Shown here: piece by piece, positions 7,671 to 53,738 of the stretch | How the letters are laid out: each line of letters starts with the position of its first letter | Position numbering within the stretch: the stretch's first letter is position 1 | Origin: Mariniblastus sp. | Lineage (GTDB): Bacteria > Planctomycetota > Planctomycetia > Pirellulales > Pirellulaceae | Assembly: GCA_022447605.1 (NCBI GenBank) | Contig: JAKVBG010000016.1 | Coordinates: 28,376-92,375, forward strand | DNA length: 64,000 nt | Direction: 5' to 3' | Translations under genes and position numbers: made by a program | Notes under the pieces: model-generated | The model's input: only the letters and a program-made list of their open reading frames with translations | Told to the model about the DNA's origin: nothing | Database searches by the model: none

Positions 7671-7861
7671 GTTCTTTCCATTGAAATAATTGAGGGGTGG
7701 TCTGGTTGGAGGCTATTGTAGTCGGATTTCATCTGTTTTTCACGCCTTCAATTCTTCCAACGTCTTTAGGATTTTTCAACAGCCGGTAGAATCAGCCGGG
7801 TGTTTTTCGCTGGTTCAGCCGATCGTCGACAACGAATCCTCCAGATACGACAGTTTCACAA

Positions 7862-9160
7862 ATGAATGTACTCATCATTGGCAGTGGTGGTCGAGAGCAT
7901 GCATTGGCCTGGAAAATTGGTCAAAGCAGCCGTGTCGACCGGGTTTTCGTGGCACCAGGCAACGCGGGCACCGAGCTGGACGCGGAAAATGTCGACATCG
8001 CGGCTACCGACACGGCCGCACTGATTGCGTTTGCCAAGCAGAACCAGGTCGAGATCACCGTGGTCGGCCCCGAGGCACCGCTCTGTGATGGCCTGGTCGA
8101 CGATTTTTCCGAGGCTGGCTTGAGGGCCTTTGGGCCAAGCCGACGCGCAGCCCAGCTGGAGGGTAGCAAGGTGTTCTGCAAGAACATGTTGCGCGCCGCG
8201 GATGTGCCGACCGCCGATTTCCATACATTTGAAGATGCGGCTCATGCCGAACGTTTCATCAATGAGCGTTACGGTGAGACACCGGATGATGTCCCCCTGG
8301 TGGTCAAGGCGGACGGTTTGGCGGCCGGCAAGGGCGCCATCGTCTGTGGGACCCAGCAGGAAGCCCTGGAAGCGATCGAAAAAATTGCCCGCAGTCGTGA
8401 ATTTGGCGCCGCCGGTGATCGTTTCATTATCGAGGACCGTATGTCGGGCCAGGAGGCCAGTATCCTGGCGATTACCGATGGCCAGACGATCTTGACCCTG
8501 CCCCCGGCCCAGGATCATAAGCGGGCCGGTGACGGTGACACGGGGCTCAACACGGGGGGCATGGGCGCTTACTGTCCCACGCCTGCCATCGACGAGGCCA
8601 TGCTCGCCTGGGTGGAGGAGAGTGTCCTGGTGCCGACGGTGCACGCCATGAAGCGTTCGCGAAACCCGTTTCGCGGGATCCTGTATGCCGGCTTGATGCT
8701 CACGCCGCAGGGACCAAAGGTACTCGAATACAACGTGCGGTTTGGTGATCCCGAGTGTCAGCCGATGTTGATGCGGATGCAGACCGATTTTATCGATGTG
8801 ATCGAGGCCACGCTGGATGGCCGCCTGGCAGAAATCGAACCTCTCCAGTGGGATCCCCGTCCCAGTATCTGTGTGGTGATGGCCTCCCAGGGCTATCCGG
8901 GTTCGTATGACAAGGGGCATGCGATACGGGGCTTGGAGGAGGCCGCCGGTATCGAGGATGTGAAAGTTTTCCACGCCGGTACCAAGATGGCTGACCAACA
9001 GGTCGTGACCAACGGGGGACGGGTGCTGGGTGTCACCGCCCTCGGTGAGAGTGTGGCGAAAGCCAAGTTACAGGCTTACCGGGCGGTCCAGTGTATTCGC
9101 TGGGATGGTGCCTGGTGTCGCAAGGATATTGCCGACCGGGCGATTGCCCAGAATATCTAG
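7862..9160 (+). CDS. purD: Phosphoribosylamine--glycine ligase
   Basis: MNVLIIGSGGREHAL, VVGPEAPL, LEGSKVF, VKADGLAAGKG, QDHKR, NTGGMGAY, EYNVRFGDPE, TNGGRVL. Confidence 0.99.
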   Translation: MNVLIIGSGGREHALAWKIGQSSRVDRVFVAPGNAGTELDAENVDIAATDTAALIAFAKQNQVEITVVGPEAPLCDGLVDDFSEAGLRAFGPSRRAAQLEGSKVFCKNMLRAADVPTADFHTFEDAAHAERFINERYGETPDDVPLVVKADGLAAGKGAIVCGTQQEALEAIEKIARSREFGAAGDRFIIEDRMSGQEASILAITDGQTILTLPPAQDHKRAGDGDTGLNTGGMGAYCPTPAIDEAMLAWVEESVLVPTVHAMKRSRNPFRGILYAGLMLTPQGPKVLEYNVRFGDPECQPMLMRMQTDFIDVIEATLDGRLAEIEPLQWDPRPSICVVMASQGYPGSYDKGHAIRGLEEAAGIEDVKVFHAGTKMADQQVVTNGGRVLGVTALGESVAKAKLQAYRAVQCIRWDGAWCRKDIADRAIAQNI

Positions 9161-9193
9161 ACGATCGTGGGAAACTTGGTGGGCCCAGGCGTG

Positions 9194-9859
9194 TCAGGAA
9201 CCGTCTTCGGGGGGCCGCATTTGGCGCTCGAGCTCTTCCAGGTATTCCTTGGGAAACGGGCTTGGATCACCCGGTTCCGTGTCTTGATCCTGTTCCGGCG
9301 GAACGTCATCGGCCAGCTGCTCGCGGCGGTTGGCCCACCGTTTCCATGCGTTGATTTCATCCTCGTTGAGCAGGTCATCGACTGCGTCGACCGCATTGCC
9401 TGGTTTCGTGCTCCTCTTTTTTACCTCTTCGCCCGAAGAGGATTCAGGCAACTCGGCTGCCCGCAACTGATCGTAATACCAGGCTTCAGCATCGATAAAC
9501 TGGGCTCGCCGACGACGGGCCGCATTTTGTACCCAGTGATCCGAGGAGACGACTGTCAAACGCTGGGGATCCGTGTGCGCGCCGATCAGTTCATCGATCA
9601 ACAGGTCGGCATTGGCATATCCGACCGAGTAATGAACATCGATGCCAAACTCGTTCTGTTGTTCGACTGCTGCCGACGAGGGAACTTTCTGGGCATCGAA
9701 CACAACGGAGACCGTGTCGGCCCGCTTTCCACAATGCCGACCAATTTCCAGCAGTAGCCGCTGCCGAGCCTGGGCCAGCGAAGCGGCCGTCGCGCGCTTG
9801 CCATACAGCCCGCATCCAAAAATAACATTGTAACCGTCGATCAGGGTGGCACAGGTCAT
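9194..9859 (-). CDS. NYN/PIN-like domain protein (YacP/Rae1-like RNase) with acidic C-terminal tail
   Basis: LIDGYN, ADLLI and VVSSD motifs; likely start MTCATLIDGYN at 9859. Confidence 0.8.
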   Translation of the reverse strand: MTCATLIDGYNVIFGCGLYGKRATAASLAQARQRLLLEIGRHCGKRADTVSVVFDAQKVPSSAAVEQQNEFGIDVHYSVGYANADLLIDELIGAHTDPQRLTVVSSDHWVQNAARRRRAQFIDAEAWYYDQLRAAELPESSSGEEVKKRSTKPGNAVDAVDDLLNEDEINAWKRWANRREQLADDVPPEQDQDTEPGDPSPFPKEYLEELERQMRPPEDGS

Positions 9860-47185: not shown

Positions 47186-47471
47186 TGCGCTGCAACCTTG
47201 GGTCCTAAAGTATGATCTGGCAGATCGGGAACTGTTTTTTGTGGAACGATTTGAATTCGATCGCGGATGTCGCGTCGTCTACAAAAAACCCTAGGTTGTC
47301 GTTGATGAGGTCAGGTTAAAGTTGGTTGGGAAGGTTGTGAAACTAAGGATTTAGTTTCCCCACCGGCGTTAAAATCGGCATATCCTGCCAAACGTCCCCA
47401 TAACCCTTGATACGACCAATAATTACCGCGAAGATTAGTCCGTCAAGAGCTTGAAAAACAGGGCTTTACCG

Positions 47472-48098
47472 ATGACTGACGAATTTCCGTCAAAACCGCA
47501 GGATCTGCCGCAACCTGCTGCCCCCCAGTCGGTTCCTCACCCAATTCTCCGTGCGGGACGCTTGGTTTTAAGGCCGCTTGAATCGGCTGACGCCCCGCGA
47601 GTGCAGGAGATCTGTCGGGATCGAGGGATTGCGGCCACGACCCGCAATGTTCCTCATCCGTATCCCGAGGGTGCCGCTCTGCTGTGGATTGAATCCCATC
47701 CGGAGCTTTGGTCCAGTGGAAAAGCGGCCGTTTTTGGCATCTGCCTGGACGAGGACCAGGGAGCGAGTCTGGTCGGTGCGATCGGTTTGGAGATCAATCC
47801 ATTGGATCACCACGCAGAAATCGGATATTGGTTGTCCAGGGAATGCTGGGGGCAGGGGATCTGTACAGAGGCCGTCGAAGTGATTGTCCGTTTCGGCTTT
47901 GAACAACTCGGCTTGCAACGAATTCATGCCATTTGCATGGCCAGCAACCCGGCCTCGGGGCGGGTGTTGGAAAAAAACGGCCTGATCAAGGAGGGGCGGC
48001 TGCGAAATCACATTCGAAAATGGGGCGTTTTTCACGACGTTGACGTGTACGGCATCCTCCGCCGTGATTCTGACTTGGTAGCTCACCGCGACGGCTGA
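47472..48098 (+). CDS. GNAT acetyltransferase, RimJ/RimL family
   Basis: RLVLRPL, AEIGYWL, WGQGICTEA, NPASGRVLEKNG; ORF opens at TTG 47451. Confidence 0.92.
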   Translation: MTDEFPSKPQDLPQPAAPQSVPHPILRAGRLVLRPLESADAPRVQEICRDRGIAATTRNVPHPYPEGAALLWIESHPELWSSGKAAVFGICLDEDQGASLVGAIGLEINPLDHHAEIGYWLSRECWGQGICTEAVEVIVRFGFEQLGLQRIHAICMASNPASGRVLEKNGLIKEGRLRNHIRKWGVFHDVDVYGILRRDSDLVAHRDG

Positions 48099-48352
48099 CG
48101 CTGGGGATTCGGCGCCCGGCGCCATCGTTTCCCGATATTTTGGCAGGGCCTGTTTTTTTGTTTCTTTTCTGAAATCTGCAAAAGATCGAGAGAACGGGCG
48201 CGAATAACGTTTAAAGACTGCCTGACAAAGCTGACTTCGGTGGGCCCGAGCAAGGTGATCCGCCGCGCTTGTTCGCCGTGTTCGGTGGCTGGCTGGAGGG
48301 CCGATCTGATCGACGTTCGCTTACTTTTTTGCCGAAATTACCGGACGAGGGG

Positions 48353-48655
48353 ATGACTGAGATGGCCGAGACAAAGACCCCTGAACAGCAAGGGACACGA
48401 GTTACGTTCCTGGACCAAACCGGAGCCAAGAGTGTGGATGCGGTGGTTTCTGACGCCATTACCGTGCGACGGATTCTGCCGAGCATCATCACCAAGATGA
48501 ACCTGCCTGTGGTCGGACCGGATGGTCAGCCGCTGAGCTACAGTCTGGACCACAAAGAGGGGGGCCGACGTTTGGATGAAAATCAGACACTCGTCGAGGC
48601 AAACGTTTCCACGGGCGACCACTTGATTATCTATCCTGAAATCGTAGCCGGGTAA
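48353..48655 (+). CDS. Ubiquitin-like beta-grasp protein (EsaB/YukD-like) ending in -VAG
   Basis: VTFLDQTG...LxENQTLxEAxVxxGDxLxI pattern typical of Ub-fold proteins; stop directly after Ala-Gly; starts at ATG 48353 (GAGGGG upstream) or 48362. Confidence 0.85.
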   Translation: MTEMAETKTPEQQGTRVTFLDQTGAKSVDAVVSDAITVRRILPSIITKMNLPVVGPDGQPLSYSLDHKEGGRRLDENQTLVEANVSTGDHLIIYPEIVAG

Positions 48656-48769
48656 GCCACTTTTTGGCATGGGGATGATGTTGTTAAAGCCCGGTCATTA
48701 ACCGAACCTTTCTGGCTTCCCCAGGGGACTGCCAAAACGAATGGAAAATTTCAAGTTGTTAAAGGAACG

Positions 48770-49348
48770 ATGCGTAAATCACCCAGGGAACGCCGATTGC
48801 AGGCCGATTTCGAGTCGGTTCAAAAACTAAGCCGAGAGAGTTCCATCTTTGGTTTCGTGGCTTCAGGAACCCCGCATCAACAGTACCGGCTGCTTTTCAA
48901 CGGGAAGGGACTGGCGCGGGATCCGGCTGGCCGGATTGCCTTGGCCCAGCATCACGAAGTGATCGTTGAGTTGGGTGCTGCCTATCCCCGGATGATGCCC
49001 CAATTGGCATGGCAAACCCCGATCTTTCATCCCAACATCTCCAACAATGGCGTGGTCTGCCTGGGGGGGTATGGAGCCCACTGGGTGCCGAGCCTGACGC
49101 TTGACCAATTGTGCGGCATGCTGTGGGACATGATCCGTTACAGGAACTTTGATACCGATAGTCCCTATAACCGTGATGCGGCCCTTTGGATTCGGGCGCA
49201 GAACCAATTTTCATTGCCGCTCGACCGGCGAAATATCCGTGATCGAGTTGCGGGTGATTCGGCCGGAGCTGCCCCGAAGCGGAGGATAATCGATTCGGGG
49301 ATCGAGATCATTACACCCGGAAGTGACGAAATCACCTTTATCGAGTAA
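48770..49348 (+). CDS. Stand-alone E2 ubiquitin-conjugating (UBC-fold) enzyme
   Basis: RRLQADF helix 1, AYPxxxP, TPIFHPNI (HPN 87-89), catalytic Cys97 in GVVCL, W-x-P, DSPYNRDAA. Confidence 0.92.
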   Translation: MRKSPRERRLQADFESVQKLSRESSIFGFVASGTPHQQYRLLFNGKGLARDPAGRIALAQHHEVIVELGAAYPRMMPQLAWQTPIFHPNISNNGVVCLGGYGAHWVPSLTLDQLCGMLWDMIRYRNFDTDSPYNRDAALWIRAQNQFSLPLDRRNIRDRVAGDSAGAAPKRRIIDSGIEIITPGSDEITFIE

Positions 49349-50615
49349 TTTCCAATCTCATCATGAGGCTTGTGGATTGAATATCGAAAGATGCAATCTC
49401 AGTGACGAGGTGTTTGCCGGTGCGGCCTGTCCAGAGCAAGTGGCCTTGAGCGGCTGTGAAGCGACCGGTTCACCCGACTTGTTGATTAACGATGATGATC
49501 GCTATTCCCGGCTGCGCCTGATTGGCTGGTGGGAGCAGGAAAAAATCGCGGCCGCCAAGGTGTTGGTGGTGGGCGCCGGGGCGCTGGGCAACGAGGTCTT
49601 GAAGAACCTGGTCCTGATGGGGATTGGTGAAATTACACTGGTTGATTTTGATACCGTGCAATGCTCCAACCTTTCGCGGTCAGTCCTGTTTCGATCCGGG
49701 GATGCGGGCCAACCGAAGGCGGTGGTTGCAGCCAGGGTGGCTCAAGAATTGAATCCCGACTGTAAAATCAAAGCCGTGCAGGGAGATGTCCTGACCGAGA
49801 TCGGGTTGGGGTTCGTTCGTGAACAGGACGTGGTGATCAGTTGTGTGGACAACCGGGAGGCCCGTCTCTGGATCAACCGCATGTGTTGGAAGGTGGCGAC
49901 GCCCTGGATCGATGGCGGGATTCAGGAAATCAACGGCGTGGCCAAGGTGTTCCGGCCTGGCGAGGGTCCCTGTTACGAGTGCGGGATGACGGAAAAAGAT
50001 TACCAGCTCATCCAGTTGCGTTACAGTTGCCCTTTGTTAAAGCAGGAAGACGTGCTGCAGGGCAGGGTGCCCACGGCACCGACCATTGCCTCGATGATCG
50101 GAGGACTCCAGGTCCAGGAGGCGCTGAAGCTGATTCACGATATGCCAACCGAGGGAGGTACAGCGCTTGTTTACAACGGCGTCGCCAATCGGTTTTATTC
50201 GACCCGATACCCCTGGCGAGAAGACTGCCTGTCTCACGAATCGTATGAACCGATCATCCGTTCCCCCTTGAGCGCGCAGACTTCCACCTTGTCGGATCTG
50301 TTTGGCTTTGTTGATTTACTTGGGGTGGGCCGAGCCGAGCAGCTTGAACTGGACCGGGACCTGGTCGAACAGCTCGAATGCCGGCTGTGTGGTCACCAAG
50401 TTCCAGTGGGGCAACCCCGCTCCGATGTCCCGATGAAGCGTGCCATCTGTGAGCGGTGTGAACAACCGATGGCCATCACGATGACCCATCAAATTGACCG
50501 CGCTGCAGCGTCCAGCCGTAAGCTCTGTCAGGTCGGGATCCCAGCATACGATATCGTGAAGGTCCGGACCGATTCTGGCATCCAGTTCATTCAATTGTCG
50601 GGAGATGCCCCCTGA
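49323..50615 (+). CDS. E1-like (ThiF/MoeB/UBA) activating enzyme with C-terminal Zn-ribbon extension
   Basis: VVGAGALGNE, VDFDTVQCSNLSR, CVDNREAR, PCYEC, candidate catalytic Cys in YSC, CLSH, then CRLC...CERC; true start uncertain. Confidence 0.93.
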   Translation: MTKSPLSSNFQSHHEACGLNIERCNLSDEVFAGAACPEQVALSGCEATGSPDLLINDDDRYSRLRLIGWWEQEKIAAAKVLVVGAGALGNEVLKNLVLMGIGEITLVDFDTVQCSNLSRSVLFRSGDAGQPKAVVAARVAQELNPDCKIKAVQGDVLTEIGLGFVREQDVVISCVDNREARLWINRMCWKVATPWIDGGIQEINGVAKVFRPGEGPCYECGMTEKDYQLIQLRYSCPLLKQEDVLQGRVPTAPTIASMIGGLQVQEALKLIHDMPTEGGTALVYNGVANRFYSTRYPWREDCLSHESYEPIIRSPLSAQTSTLSDLFGFVDLLGVGRAEQLELDRDLVEQLECRLCGHQVPVGQPRSDVPMKRAICERCEQPMAITMTHQIDRAAASSRKLCQVGIPAYDIVKVRTDSGIQFIQLSGDAP

Positions 50616-50682
50616 CGGGGAGCTCCCGTTTGCCCTGCCAAGGGGCAGAACCCGTTTCCTGACTTCAAGCCACCGTCGAACC

Positions 50683-52131
50683 ATGGATGCTGATATCCAA
50701 CTTGGCCCCCTGCAACAGGCCGCGACCGAGCAGGCGATCCGTCCCGATCGGGATCGGCGTTACCTGACGGCAACGTGTGGGCGATTTGCTCCTGATGATT
50801 TGCCAATTTTTGTCGATCTGGATGTCATGCGAGACATGGAGGCCCACGCCCGGTCCAACACCAATGTTGAGTTGGGGGGTGTGATGCTGGGAGTCCAATG
50901 CATCGACGCCGAGGGGGCTCCGTTCATCATGGTGACCGATGCTCTAAGGGCCCGGCACTACGAGGCGACCCGGGGGAGCTTCAAGTTCACTGCCGATACC
51001 TGGAGCCAAATCACCCGTGACCGTGCCGAGTTACCCGGTCACCTCCAGATGATCGGCTGGTATCACACACATCCTGGATGGGGCGTGTTCCTTTCCGGTC
51101 TGGATCGTTTCATTTGCAACCACTTTTTCGGCCGGCCACTGGATGTGGCCCTGGTGATTGACCCCTGTTCCGGTGAACGGGGTTGGTTTCAGTGGGCCGC
51201 GTCGTCAAGAAAGTTGAAGAAGAAACGCAAGGTCAAGGGATTTTTCCTGATGGCCAACCGTTATCGAAAATCGGAGCTGGAATATTATCAGCGTCTTTAC
51301 TCGGGCCCGGGCTCGACGTCGATGAACTCCCACTCCGATTCGCATGCCGAGCGTGACGGTCTTTTGCCAGATTCGAACAGATTCCCAACCGATGACTCAA
51401 GGGTGAACATGATGGATGCTCGAAGAACTGTTTTTGACCTTGCCGTGGTTTCTGTTTTGCTGCTTCAGCTCGTGATGGCTTCCCTGTTTGGATGGAAGTT
51501 ACTGGAATGGACGCCCAGGCCAGAGTCCGCTGATGTTTCTCGACAGCAGGCATCGGAGGCTGTCGCCACTGCCCGAGAGACAGCTTACGCAGAAATCTTG
51601 GAAAGTGTCGTGGCCGGCCAGACCGGGCAGGAGGGAATGGTTGAAGAGATGATGGAAATGAAGGAGCAGAAGAGGCTCTTGCGGGCCAACCTGCAGGGGC
51701 AACTGGCCCGTGTCGAACAGATTCGCCTGGAGAACCACTCCATACAGGACGAGTTGGATTTGACCCGGAAACGGGCGCATGCACTGGAGCAGCAGGTGGC
51801 CGGCCTGCAGGACAAAAACCTCCGGTCTGACCGTGAACTGAGGGAACTCAGGAATTCTGCCCCAATGGCGGTAGAAAATCGGTCAGATCCGGTGGTCGCC
51901 GACGAATCAGGATGGTGGCAGGCGGTCTGGCCAGTTTACGGATTCTGGGGGAGCGGCCTGATCTTCCTGCTGGGCGGATTCGCCGGTTGCCTGGTCGCCC
52001 GGTGCTTTGTCAGCCGAGTTGATCCCGGCCGGGAGCCGAGCGAGGAGGTAGTCGATCTGGTAGGGGAAGCGGACCGGCTCGAATTTGAACGAGGGGACAA
52101 ACGGCCGCCGCTGAGTCGGCTGGAAGGATAA
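50683..52131 (+). CDS. JAB/MPN+ metallo-isopeptidase fused to TM-coiled coil-TM
   Basis: VELGG Glu and GWYHTHPGWGVFLSGLD JAMM motif (HxH-x7-S-x2-D); two hydrophobic segments around a heptad region; likely ATG at 50683. Confidence 0.9.
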   Translation: MDADIQLGPLQQAATEQAIRPDRDRRYLTATCGRFAPDDLPIFVDLDVMRDMEAHARSNTNVELGGVMLGVQCIDAEGAPFIMVTDALRARHYEATRGSFKFTADTWSQITRDRAELPGHLQMIGWYHTHPGWGVFLSGLDRFICNHFFGRPLDVALVIDPCSGERGWFQWAASSRKLKKKRKVKGFFLMANRYRKSELEYYQRLYSGPGSTSMNSHSDSHAERDGLLPDSNRFPTDDSRVNMMDARRTVFDLAVVSVLLLQLVMASLFGWKLLEWTPRPESADVSRQQASEAVATARETAYAEILESVVAGQTGQEGMVEEMMEMKEQKRLLRANLQGQLARVEQIRLENHSIQDELDLTRKRAHALEQQVAGLQDKNLRSDRELRELRNSAPMAVENRSDPVVADESGWWQAVWPVYGFWGSGLIFLLGGFAGCLVARCFVSRVDPGREPSEEVVDLVGEADRLEFERGDKRPPLSRLEG

Positions 52132-52170
52132 TCCGTGTCGTCTCGTGTTCCGATTTGACGTTGAAAAAAA

Positions 52171-53022
52171 ATGACCGTAATCATTTTCATTTTTGTGTTA
52201 GCCGTGCTGCTGGGAACAGGTGTCCTGGTCTTCATCAGCATTTGCTCCATGTTTGCGAGCTTGGCACCGTCGTACCGTACTTATGAGAAACTTGCCGACC
52301 GTTACCAGGGACATTTCCAGGCAGGTATCCTGTTTCGCGATCCATGGCTTAAGTTTCGACATGGTGACTCGAATTGTGTGTTGAATCATGGGAGCCGGAA
52401 GGTTGGTTATCCGGCAGGCATGACCCGATTGACGATTGACGGGCATGACCCGCACGTTGGGCTGCTGGTGACGACGCCAACGGCAGAGAAGGGGCTGCCG
52501 AGCCGATTTGGCATGCAGTCAGTTCGTTTGCCCGCTGAGTTTTCCGGTCACGATTTCAAGGTGCAAAGCAACCGACCCGACGAGGCTGCTCTCCTGTTTC
52601 AGGGCAGTGCATTGTGGAAGTTGCGCCAATTGGCCTATCATGTCGGGCAGGCCGGGATCGAGATCCGTATGGATCGGGGCAAGCTGATGATCACCCAATG
52701 TGAATCGCTTCACGAGTTTCAGGCATTGGATGACTTTGTGCGGTGCGGGCTGGAACTGCATCATCAATTTTCCCTCAAAGCGGCCCCGGAGATCGAGTTT
52801 GTAAAGGAAGATCTGGTGACGATCGTGGAAGCGGTGCAATGCCCGATTTGCAGCGATTCAATTCACGATTCCATGGTGGTCTGTGTCCGTTGCAAAACAC
52901 CGCATTGCCTGGACTGTTGGCAATACAATGGCCGATGTTCGACATTTGCCTGTGGGGAGACCCGATACCTGGGCGCAGGCATAGCCGGAATTTTGGCAGG
53001 CGATCAGGAGAGTATGAGCTAG
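52171..53022 (+). CDS. Membrane-anchored protein with C-terminal prokaryotic RING-like finger (candidate E3)
   Basis: N-terminal TM helix; CPIC-x10-CVRCKTPHCLDCW-x5-CSTFAC at 52840-52953. Confidence 0.85.
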   Translation: MTVIIFIFVLAVLLGTGVLVFISICSMFASLAPSYRTYEKLADRYQGHFQAGILFRDPWLKFRHGDSNCVLNHGSRKVGYPAGMTRLTIDGHDPHVGLLVTTPTAEKGLPSRFGMQSVRLPAEFSGHDFKVQSNRPDEAALLFQGSALWKLRQLAYHVGQAGIEIRMDRGKLMITQCESLHEFQALDDFVRCGLELHHQFSLKAAPEIEFVKEDLVTIVEAVQCPICSDSIHDSMVVCVRCKTPHCLDCWQYNGRCSTFACGETRYLGAGIAGILAGDQESMS

Positions 53023-53096
53023 GCTGACGCCAGTCGTCCTGGTCCTGTCAGGAGAAGACCGGCCGACCGGCAGACCGGCAGGGTGAGCATGGATTG

Positions 53097-53738
53097 ATGA
53101 GTCAATTTTTCATTCAGACTGAGCGAGTCGGGTTGCGTAAGTTTCAAGCAACCGACCTGGATCCGTTCACCCGGATCAATAACGATCCCCGGGTCATGGA
53201 GTTTTTCCCGCAACGGCTGTCACGCGAGGAATGTCGCGATTACATGCAACGGATCAACACACGAATCGACCTGCAGGGTTTTGGATTTTGGGCCGCCGAA
53301 AACCTGCAGGATCGTCAGCTGATGGGGTTTGTCGGGATCACCGAAGTGACCTACCAGACTGATTTTACGCCGGCTGTAGAGATTGGCTGGCGGTTGGCCG
53401 TTCCCTACTGGGGCCACGGTTTCGCGACCGAAGCGGCCTGGGGCTGTCTGCAGTTTGGTTTCGAACAGGCCAGCCTGGAACGTATCGTCTCCTTTACGAC
53501 CCCACTCAACCAGCGATCCCGGCGCGTTATGGAGAGGCTGGGGATGGTTTGCCGGGGGCAGTTTAATCACCCATTGATCCCGCCAGGCCATCGTTTGCGA
53601 CCCCATGTCTGGTATTCGTGCGAGCGAGACCAGTTCCGGGAGTCAGCCCCGCCTAAGGAGACGCCCAGTGATTGCTCAACTGTTCCAGCAGCGGATCAAT
53701 CGTCTGGCCCTGGATCGAATGGGGAGGCTCCCACTTAA
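53097..53738 (+). CDS. GNAT acetyltransferase, RimJ/RimL family
   Basis: TERVGLR, VEIGWRL, WGHGFATEAA, NQRSRRVMERLGM. Confidence 0.92.
   Translation: MSQFFIQTERVGLRKFQATDLDPFTRINNDPRVMEFFPQRLSREECRDYMQRINTRIDLQGFGFWAAENLQDRQLMGFVGITEVTYQTDFTPAVEIGWRLAVPYWGHGFATEAAWGCLQFGFEQASLERIVSFTTPLNQRSRRVMERLGMVCRGQFNHPLIPPGHRLRPHVWYSCERDQFRESAPPKETPSDCSTVPAADQSSGPGSNGEAPT

Follow-up and report, generated by a model that had tools for sequence, protein, structure and literature searches.

The window, by which we mean the whole 64,000-nucleotide stretch of Mariniblastus sp. DNA that was analysed (contig JAKVBG010000016.1, positions 28,376 to 92,375), carries on its forward strand, to which all coordinates below refer, five co-oriented genes in the order Ubl-E2-E1-JAB-RING, with successive gaps of 114, -26, 67 and 39 nt. 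The first gene (48353-48655) encodes a YukD-like Ubl of 100 aa (Pfam YukD, E 9e-16), which ends in P-E-I-V-A-G directly before the stop codon, a C-terminus that is identical in Mariniblastus fucicola. It is followed by an E2 of the UBC fold (48770-49348; Pfam UQ_con, E 3e-13), whose HPN motif and catalytic Cys (H-P-N...C) are conserved in the reads of 91 loci, and by a ThiF-type adenylating E1 (49323-50615; Pfam ThiF, E 8e-60). The fourth gene (50683-52131) encodes a JAB-TM-coiled coil-TM protein of 482 aa plus stop, and the fifth (52171-53022) a candidate membrane-anchored RING E3, made of an N-terminal TM, a middle domain of ~180 aa and a Prok-RING_1 domain (Pfam PF14446, 33.9 bits against a cut-off of 29.1). 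The N-terminal TM of the RING partner is present in 62 of 67 orthologous loci and starts at residue 2 in the protein of the window; according to the Pfam entry, bacterial RING proteins of such operons carry TM helices, as this one does. All five proteins score above their Pfam cut-offs and, conservation of the neighbourhood included, make up an operon of the Ubl-E1-E2-JAB-RING (Prok-RING_1) type. Indeed, the gene order is identical in M. fucicola and likewise in 22 further loci, and among 35 fully flanked species-representative loci the E1 is found in 35, the E2 in 34 and the downstream RING in 31.

The limits of the JAB gene are given by the ORF list, by a database gene call of 482 aa and by the N-termini of homologues: the start at 50683 matches the M-x-x-(D/E)-I-Q-F-G motif at which all homologues begin, and an alternative in-frame ATG lies upstream at 50605, overlapping the E1 stop. 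The protein consists of four parts, namely an MPN+ domain, a disordered linker, two hydrophobic helices and, between these, a 74-residue heptad helix. The order that an earlier note on this DNA had proposed (JAB domain, TM1, heptad region, TM2 and acidic tail) is all there, near the positions where it had been placed. The AF2 models used below are monomers that were read for secondary structure and pLDDT; they are silent on oligomers and on hairpin versus extended geometry.

The MPN+/JAMM domain (aa 26-205, 50758-51297) is recognised by its Pfam scores (JAB 26.3 bits against a cut-off of 22.5, Prok-JAB 28.4 bits against 25), by its catalytic residues, by an AF2 model with pLDDT mostly above 90 and by its PDB matches. 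The motif E...H-x-H-x(7)-S-x2-D is intact, and E63 (codon 50869-50871), H128 (51064-51066), H130 (51070-51072), S138 (51094-51096) and D141 (51103-51105) are invariant across 118 homologues. In the PDB the domain is matched best by CSN5, Rpn11 and the Caldiarchaeum Rpn11 homologue (phmmer E ~1e-10; Foldseek E ~4e-10). Motif on the one hand, fold and profile on the other, both place the domain among the JAMM/MPN+ metalloisopeptidases of the Rpn11/CSN5 type, and it would be expected to act as an isopeptidase on the Ubl.

The domain is joined to the membrane by a disordered linker (aa 206-246, 51298-51420) of about 40 residues, with an AF2 pLDDT of ~46, an entropy of 2.24 bits and 22% gaps in the family alignment; within it a D-P-R-Y-like motif is conserved, D215, P216 and R217 each at 90% or more. 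TM1 spans aa 247-275 (51421-51507) and TM2 aa 412-443 (51916-52011), close to the 51430-51500 and 51913-52011 estimated in the earlier note, and each is supported by hydropathy, by an AF2 helix over the same residues and by column counts. Their Kyte-Doolittle 19-residue peaks are 2.29 and 2.05, respectively, and on a Hessa-type scale their windows come out at +0.3 and +0.9 kcal/mol, with all other windows at +9.6 or more. TM1 is the best-conserved part of the protein outside the JAB domain: R247, K/R248, P249, D/E252, M258, L259, Q262, W271 and K/R272 are conserved, and among them the polar Q262 and D/E252 occur in 115 and 111 of 118 sequences. TM2 begins with aromatic residues, contains a G431-x3-G435 motif and has R440-R441 towards the cytoplasm. 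Two hydrophobic segments are found at equivalent places in 104 of 120 database homologues (Kyte-Doolittle threshold 1.6), and with a threshold of 1.5 two TM segments are found in 74 of 78 species-representative loci of Pirellulaceae/Mariniblastus-type planctomycetes and in 23 of the 23 operon loci examined (the window and 22 relatives). The two-pass membrane architecture is confirmed as real and as conserved in hundreds of relatives. That the segments are hydrophobic but do not span the membrane, which would make the protein a soluble or peripheral coiled-coil JAB, is extremely improbable: TM2 is glycine-rich and weaker than TM1, and 16 of the 120 homologues fall under the 1.6 threshold, but the two windows lead every other one by at least ~9 kcal/mol in the query and across 119 homologues, conserved Arg/Lys and Trp belts flank them, and both are predicted helices of 29-32 residues.

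Mean K+R is 4.5 in the predicted cytoplasmic flanks versus 2.4 in the periplasmic ones; conserved charges stand before TM1 (R247 and K/R248) and after TM2 (R440/R441), and the aromatic belts (W271, W411-413) are at the loop-side ends of the helices. This charge bias and these belts fit an N-in, loop-out, C-in topology. In this respect, the JAB domain must be cytoplasmic because its Ubl, E1 and E2 partners carry no export signals and the E1 needs ATP. The suggestion that the protease sits in the cytoplasm and the coiled coil across the membrane is thus consistent with the K+R bias, the belts and the partners alike. Beyond TM2, the C-terminal tail (aa 444-482, 52012-52128) is disordered (AF2 pLDDT ~45) and is the most variable region of the family alignment; it had been described as acidic, and the tail is there but the acidity is only mild (11 D+E versus 7 K+R in 39 residues).

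The loop between the TM helices has ~136 residues (121-168 across homologues) and comprises two predicted helices. The first (aa 284-314, 51532-51624; AF2) ends in a conserved T-G turn, with L306 kept in 108, T314 in 72 and G315 in 87 of 118 homologues. The second, the coiled-coil helix (aa 319-392, 51637-51858), is a single 74-residue helix in the AF2 model, with 10-residue block-mean pLDDT of ~86-97, and corresponds to the heptad region of about 75 residues that the earlier note had proposed. The heptad score of the loop is not significant in the single sequence, since 75 of 500 composition-preserving shuffles reached the observed value, and periodicity was therefore tested on the family profile. 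The family hydrophobicity profile shows a sharp 3.5-residue periodicity with a power of 1.15, against a mean of 0.09 and a maximum of 0.74 in 5000 shuffles; the a/d positions are 57% L/I/V/M/F versus 12% elsewhere, and the pattern is kept across the 118 homologues while the sequence itself varies over aa 348-392. The same helix carries a conserved N336-L337-x-G339-Q340-x-A342 motif, Q340 being present in 113 of 118. If straight, the helix would be ~11 nm long, with no more than 19 residues to lead back to TM2; it must therefore be bent, run along the membrane or pair with another chain. With the isolated membrane module as query, Foldseek found no meaningful match in the PDB, and in a profile search of 1.84 billion proteins the module was found, among the top matches, only in the present JAB family; these matches were full-length members, 5′-truncated gene calls starting at a conserved internal Met and two giant generic coiled-coil proteins. 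Reuse of the module in other domain contexts was considered, and the top matches gave no evidence for it.

Of 48 sampled genomes of the sister GTDB family, 43 encode a member of this JAB family, as do 9 of 23 from the window's own family, and at least 464 related species-representative loci were found. In Pirellulaceae-type planctomycetes, the distribution of the membrane JAB is clade-wide, not sporadic. Distant single-pass JAB relatives have genes for a Ser/Thr kinase and an FHA protein in their operons, and BLASTP detected no homology of their periplasmic parts to those of the two-pass proteins. Every operon form includes the membrane-bound JAB, and some add a soluble JAB to it. Where a soluble JAB is present, 5 of 7 operons encode a Ubl extended beyond the A-G terminus; where it is absent, 5 of 12 do. 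A division of labour in which the soluble JAB processes the Ubl precursor and the membrane JAB serves deconjugation only was considered, and it fits imperfectly.

What might a JAMM protease do with such a membrane module? The reading that we favour, with a probability of roughly 0.55, is that the protein is a membrane-tethered deconjugase of a membrane-localised, eukaryote-like Ubl system and that the TM/coiled-coil module serves mainly as an anchor and as a scaffold for assembly or oligomerisation. The YukD-type Ubl would be made with its Gly already terminal, activated by the ThiF-type E1, handed to the canonical HPN-Cys E2 and attached by the single-pass membrane RING E3 to targets on the inner side of the cytoplasmic membrane. 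The Rpn11/CSN5-like JAMM domain, held at the membrane face of the E3 through the flexible ~40-residue linker, would take the Ubl off again, and presumably it would also trim the Ubl precursor in relatives that have a 2-4 residue extension and no soluble JAB. Gln, Asn, Asp and Glu within TM helices, as well as GxxxG motifs, promote helix association. D/E252 and Q262 in TM1, the GxxxG motif of TM2 and the heptad helix might in this way drive helix-helix association, of the protein with itself or with partner membrane proteins, and the module would set both the place of work of the protease and its stoichiometry. The invariant JAMM residues, the nearness to CSN5, Rpn11 and CsRpn11, the operon linkage, the TM-anchored RING, the two conserved TM segments, the heptad pattern and the disordered, variable linker between JAB domain and TM1 argue for this reading. 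JAB and E3 would meet at the same membrane, and the JAB protein may oligomerise as well. On the other side, the conserved L306, T314-G315 and N336-L337-x-G339-Q340-x-A342 indicate that the periplasmic part is not featureless. They suggest a specific contact or function that anchoring alone would not require, and this counts against a mere tether. As for the proposal that oligomerisation might gate deconjugation, monomeric CsRpn11, an archaeal relative, is catalytically active (PMC6043591), and oligomerisation is therefore not a known requirement for catalysis.

A second reading, possible but rather unlikely, is that the protein works as an Rpn11-like recycling subunit at an integral membrane protease, either FtsH or an M48 peptidase of the Ste24/HtpX type, where it strips the Ubl from tagged membrane proteins during their extraction and degradation, in analogy with ERAD and proteasomal deubiquitination. 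The JAB domain is nearest to Rpn11 and CSN5, E3 and JAB are both membrane-bound, and the presence in 43 of the 48 sampled sister-family genomes looks like housekeeping and not like a mobile defence island. Moreover, a gene for a Ste24-like Peptidase_M48 with a five-helix N-domain directly follows JAB in 8 of 13 loci of the sister GTDB family, in one case after a gap of 10 nt. However, this adjacency is that of a single bacterial family and may be inherited synteny instead of functional linkage; the operon of the window has no protease gene, the only M48 gene of the genome lies on another contig, and M48 is absent from all 35 fully flanked loci of the window's own clade.

It is unlikely, in our view, that the protein is a receptor deubiquitinase, whose periplasmic coiled coil would sense an envelope condition or ligand while TM1 and TM2 switch the JAMM domain, so that Ubl marks follow the state of the envelope. 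Its layout, TM1-extracytoplasmic domain-TM2, is that of a sensor receptor as far as topology can be judged from charge bias, and it is the only product of the operon with a sizeable extracytoplasmic part. Conserved periplasmic residues (the positions named above) accompany the polar mid-membrane Q262 and D/E252, the length of the loop is constrained to 121-168 residues, and the kinase and FHA neighbours of the distant single-pass relatives provide a signalling context. The idea of gating is weakened by the flexible, variable linker that carries the catalytic domain: this output domain precedes TM1 and is separated from it by ~40 disordered, indel-rich residues, with no continuous helix or HAMP-like converter, and the tail after TM2 is disordered and the least conserved region, leaving neither side with a structured transducing element. 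Only two helices are predicted in the loop, where neither Pfam nor Foldseek gave a match that would reveal a ligand-binding fold; conserved motifs are present in it. The gating of deconjugation by an envelope signal that the earlier note had imagined thus found no support in any computation, the low-pLDDT, gap-rich linker being no rigid transducer, and envelope-gated deconjugation is speculation. The version in which the coiled coil reads the envelope, or the enlarged planctomycete periplasm, and controls removal of the Ubl from membrane proteins through the polar TM1 and the GxxxG-bearing TM2 seems to us quite doubtful. If true, it would be a form of transmembrane signalling whose output is deconjugation, not phosphorylation or a second messenger.

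An anti-phage module of the CBASS-Cap3 or Bil type, in which JAB would limit or prime conjugation during infection, is very unlikely. Defence is the function of other bacterial E1/E2/JAB/Ubl operons (10.1101/2023.09.26.559546; PMC11601596 for the related Bub operons), and the E1 weakly matches the PADLOC E1-E2 and BilD models, but the JAB protein reaches no better than E 1e-4 against the PADLOC JAB models, Ubl, E2 and RING match no PADLOC model at all, and no NCBIfam defence model passed. PADLOC and NCBIfam scans of the operon gave no assignment to a defence system or a named family and did not place it with Cap3, Bil or Bub; there is no CD-NTase or effector gene nearby, and no Cap2, BilABD or BubE neighbour. 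The clade-wide, non-sporadic arrangement points instead to membrane housekeeping, that is quality control, turnover or regulation of membrane proteins.

With the tethered deconjugase as the preferred reading, a complete eukaryote-like Ubl cascade would have both its eraser (JAB) and its writer (RING E3) built into the cytoplasmic membrane, in bacteria known for elaborate membrane systems. If tagging were confirmed, these planctomycetes would offer a bacterial model for membrane-associated Ubl tagging, and ERAD-like logic outside eukaryotes would become testable.

How does this system compare with known ones? Ubl-E1-E2-JAB-RING operons with a YukD-like Ubl and Prok-RING_1 (PF14446) were predicted by Burroughs, Iyer and Aravind (Mol Biosyst 2011, as cited in PMC3417536 and PMC4197634). 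Their gene set and Pfam families are identical to those of the operon in the window, and Planctomycetes are among the phyla named for them (PMC4197634). In the accessible literature, which does not comprise the 2011 prediction paper itself, we found no description of the JAB as membrane-embedded with a periplasmic coiled coil, nor any experimental test of the Ubl(YukD-like)-E2-E1-JAB-RING operon type. Cap3 (type II CBASS), BilC and BubC are also bacterial JAMM peptidases that act on Ubl/target conjugates or Ubl precursors and belong to E1/E2-containing operons. In contrast to the JAB of the window, which resembles them only marginally (PADLOC E 1e-4 or worse), they are soluble and come from sporadic defence or mobile operons without a RING E3. 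Indeed, to our knowledge, all bacterial and archaeal JAMM deconjugases studied so far are soluble. The statement that known bacterial JABs are soluble stands for the characterised ones (Cap3, BilC, BubC and Mec+), but the membrane form is a large conserved family in an operon type that was described computationally in 2011.

Membrane-anchored machinery of this kind is familiar in eukaryotes, whose RING E3s include TM proteins of the ERAD and MARCH types and whose DUBs include the TM-anchored USP19 and USP30. There, too, ligase and deconjugase are tethered to one membrane face to act on membrane or membrane-proximal proteins, but the eukaryotic TM-anchored DUBs are cysteine proteases whereas the enzyme of the window is a JAMM, and no evolutionary link is known beyond the JAMM, RING, E1 and E2 domains. 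We know of no eukaryotic TM-anchored DUB with a two-pass anchor and a luminal coiled coil. In BRCC36-Abraxas/KIAA0157 (6gvw, among the Foldseek matches) an MPN domain is combined with coiled-coil helices that drive assembly, and the coiled coil of the present protein could likewise set its oligomeric state; there, however, coiled coil and MPN domain share one side and are in contact, whereas here the membrane and a disordered linker come between them. The JAMM motif and MPN fold are shared with Rpn11, CSN5 and the Caldiarchaeum subterraneum Rpn11 homologue (PMC6043591, PMC5654768), and CsRpn11 is likewise encoded in an operon with Ubl, E1, E2 and RING E3. These relatives are soluble or part of soluble complexes, whereas the JAB of the window has two TM helices and a periplasmic coiled coil, and its Ubl is YukD-like instead of ubiquitin-like, requiring no C-terminal trimming in this genome.

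The membrane JAB, called TM-JAB here, is encoded by the fourth of five co-oriented plus-strand genes that together span 48353-53022. The operon opens with a YukD-like Ubl (48353-48655; Pfam YukD E 9e-16), followed by a UBC-fold E2 with an HPN motif and catalytic Cys (48770-49348), a ThiF-type E1 (49323-50615), TM-JAB itself (50683-52131) and a RING protein that joins an N-terminal hydrophobic helix to a C-terminal Prok-RING_1 finger (52171-53022), the intergenic gaps being, in order, 114, -26, 67 and 39 nt. As listed, the TM-JAB ORF reaches an upstream ATG at 50605 and overlaps the E1 stop; because the database gene call is 482 aa long and all homologues begin at the motif equivalent to 50683, the start given in the earlier note is right. 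For the Ubl, a TTG start at 48269, which gives the longest ORF by adding 48269-48352, was rejected, homologues favouring the ATG at 48353 and a product of 100 residues. The TM helix of the RING E3 candidate starts at residue 2, leaving it essentially without a periplasmic part, and the roughly 180 residues of its middle domain had no match in Pfam. Two GNAT acetyltransferase genes of the RimJ/RimL type (Acetyltransf_3) flank the operon, at 47451-48098 and 53094-53738, the upstream one having a counterpart of 43% identity immediately 5′ of the Ubl gene in Mariniblastus fucicola (locus L001, 3453-4022).

Residues 26-205 of TM-JAB score above the gathering scores of both Pfam JAB and Prok-JAB. 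An alignment of 118 homologues shows no variation at the JAMM residues E63, H128, H130, S138 and D141, and with it AlphaFold2 returns a confident MPN fold (pLDDT mostly >90). In the PDB, structure and sequence alike match best to CSN5, Rpn11 and CsRpn11, the Caldiarchaeum subterraneum homologue of Rpn11; the PADLOC CBASS-type JAB models match marginally (E 1e-4 or worse), and no model in an NCBIfam scan gives the protein a name. By sequence and predicted fold, TM-JAB is therefore an MPN+ enzyme of the eukaryote-like kind, unlike Cap3.

Two hydrophobic segments follow, TM1 at residues 247-275 and TM2 at 412-443, with Kyte-Doolittle peaks of 2.29 and 2.05, both modelled by AlphaFold2 as helices of 29-32 residues. 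On a Hessa-type biological hydrophobicity scale (2005 values, summed over 19 residues) they come out at +0.3 and +0.9 kcal/mol, and all other stretches of the protein at +9.6 or higher; in 119 homologues the corresponding medians are -0.8 and +0.9, with no third-best stretch below +10.5. Column counts show conserved ends: TM1 is preceded by R247, K/R248 and P249 and has W271 and K/R272 at its far end, and TM2 opens with a W411-W413 belt and closes with R440 and R441, features typical of real TM helices. These residues, together with a mean K+R of 4.5 in the flanks predicted to be cytoplasmic vs 2.4 in the loop-side flanks and the cytoplasmic location of Ubl, E1 and E2, support by inference the topology proposed earlier, with the JAB domain and tail inside and the coiled coil outside.

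Between the two segments AlphaFold2 places two helices, one at residues 284-314 and a single 74-residue helix at 319-392 (10-residue block-mean pLDDT about 86-97), and the same four helices returned when the membrane module was modelled alone with an independent 71-sequence alignment. In the single sequence the heptad signal is weak, with 75 of 500 shuffles scoring at least as high; what is decisive for a heptad pattern is the family profile, in which the per-column share of L/I/V/M/F at residues 319-393 peaks sharply at a period of 3.5 residues. Power there is 1.15, vs 0.18 at 3.6 and 0.15 at 3.3 (5000 shuffles: mean 0.09, maximum 0.74), and the a/d positions are 57% hydrophobic vs 12% elsewhere in an unbroken register. 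The tail (444-482) has a variable, mildly acidic sequence and is disordered. The architecture described in the earlier note, including its heptad region of about 75 residues and its acidic tail, is confirmed in every detail. A straight helix of 74 residues would measure about 11 nm, and because the 19-residue linker back to TM2 cannot bridge that distance, the model requires a helix that is bent, runs along the membrane or pairs with one from another chain. The JAB domain and TM1 are joined by a linker of about 40 residues, modelled as disordered (pLDDT about 46), whose sequence is variable and rich in indels. Within it (51298-51420, residues 206-246) a Met and a D-P-R-Y-like motif are conserved amid variable sequence; many truncated database gene calls begin at this Met, where a separate internal start is a bare possibility.

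A word-indexed protein search gave 622 related proteins of 430-530 aa, the named sources being all Planctomycetota, for example Mariniblastus. At least 464 related loci were found in a scan of species-representative genomes; the best 80 all belong to Pirellulaceae, Mariniblastus or Planctomycetota MAGs, and two hydrophobic segments follow the JAMM motif in 74 of the 78 that were readable. In a sample of 201 genomes of the window's class, TM-JAB matches occur in 9 of 23 from the window's GTDB family (8 full-length), in 43 of 48 from a sister family and in 0 of 41 from another family, and a phylum-wide sample of 301 genomes yielded only JAB-domain matches outside the class. Such a distribution does not resemble that of defence operons, which is sporadic and island-like. 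Leaving the JAB domain aside, conservation falls from TM1 through the first half of the long helix, periplasmic helix 1, TM2 and the distal coiled coil to the linkers and tail, and both TM segments are kept in all 23 operon loci examined, the window included.

The five-gene order Ubl-E2-E1-TM-JAB-RING is found in the window and in M. fucicola. The window's own family often has a seven-gene form with two further genes, one for a soluble JAB whose JAMM motif is intact and one for a UEV-like E2 paralogue that keeps HPN and has lost the catalytic Cys (L027, 6181-6702 and 9308-9982; also L030-L032, L034-L036 and many of L063-L127); the two co-occur, and the window has neither. In one relative (L031) a tandem pair of RING-protein genes (7671-8498 and 8649-9443) lies downstream of the gene for the membrane JAB. 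In the sister-family form the RING gene is often upstream. The JAB that stays constant across all three forms is the membrane one. The Ubl ends in V-A-G immediately before the stop in the window and several relatives, and by this reading no Ubl trimming is needed in the window genome; other relatives have extensions of 2-6 residues. Since 5 of 12 operons without the soluble JAB encode an extended Ubl (2-4 residues), the membrane JAB can probably trim Ubl precursors as well as deconjugate. Directly 3′ of TM-JAB, 8 of 13 sister-family loci carry a gene for a Ste24-like M48 membrane protease, Peptidase_M48 with a five-helix N-domain (L029, 8042-9349, 10 nt from the membrane JAB; also L040-L043 and L045-L047), with an MMPL transporter gene coming after it. 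This neighbour and the Rpn11-like JAB domain hint that TM-JAB may release Ubl for reuse at a membrane protease, in the way that Rpn11 works at the proteasome. The window operon lacks an M48 gene, the only one in the genome lies on another contig, and we consider this role unlikely.

We favour, with a probability of about 0.55, a model in which TM-JAB is tethered and scaffolded by its membrane module. The module would keep a deconjugase of the Rpn11 kind on the cytoplasmic face of the membrane, close to the membrane-bound RING E3 and that enzyme's targets, as part of a defined oligomer or complex. Mid-membrane polar or acidic residues and G-x3-G motifs drive TM helix association, and structural coiled coils keep their heptads and not their sequence. 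TM1 has a near-invariant mid-membrane Q262 (115/118) and an acidic D/E252, TM2 has G431-x3-G435, and the distal coiled coil retains heptads and not sequence; these features and the flexible JAB-TM1 linker argue for the tethered scaffold. Receptor-like gating, as suggested in the earlier note, draws on the conserved periplasmic motifs and on TM-JAB being the operon's sole protein with an outside part, but is somewhat disfavoured and quite improbable, the flexible linker being a poor conduit for a signal and CsRpn11 being active as a monomer (PMC6043591).

TM-JAB would matter mainly for its clade-wide spread and for placing both the predicted writer and the predicted eraser in the membrane; in 62 of 67 orthologous loci the RING protein opens with a TM helix. 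Among the matches listed in a profile search, the TM-coiled coil-TM module occurs only with the TM-JAB family. More remote relatives from planctomycetes combine a JAB with a single TM helix and an extended helical C-terminal region, and sit in operons of YukD-Ubl, E1, JAB and FHA protein (L017, 4117-10384; L015, 5876-10949), in which the Ubl has residues beyond the A-G terminus. Among the genes scanned there, no E2 was detected; a Ser/Thr kinase gene lies upstream in one such locus. No description of a membrane-embedded JAMM was found in the accessible literature, which did not include the Burroughs 2011 paper itself. The window operon is of neither the Bil nor the Bub type (PMC11601603, PMC11601596). 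It belongs to the type with a RING protein and a YukD-Ubl that Burroughs, Iyer and Aravind predicted in 2011, as summarised in PMC3417536 and cited for Planctomycetes in PMC4197634, and TM-JAB appears to be a JAMM deconjugase variant within an already predicted prokaryotic Ubl/E1/E2/RING system.
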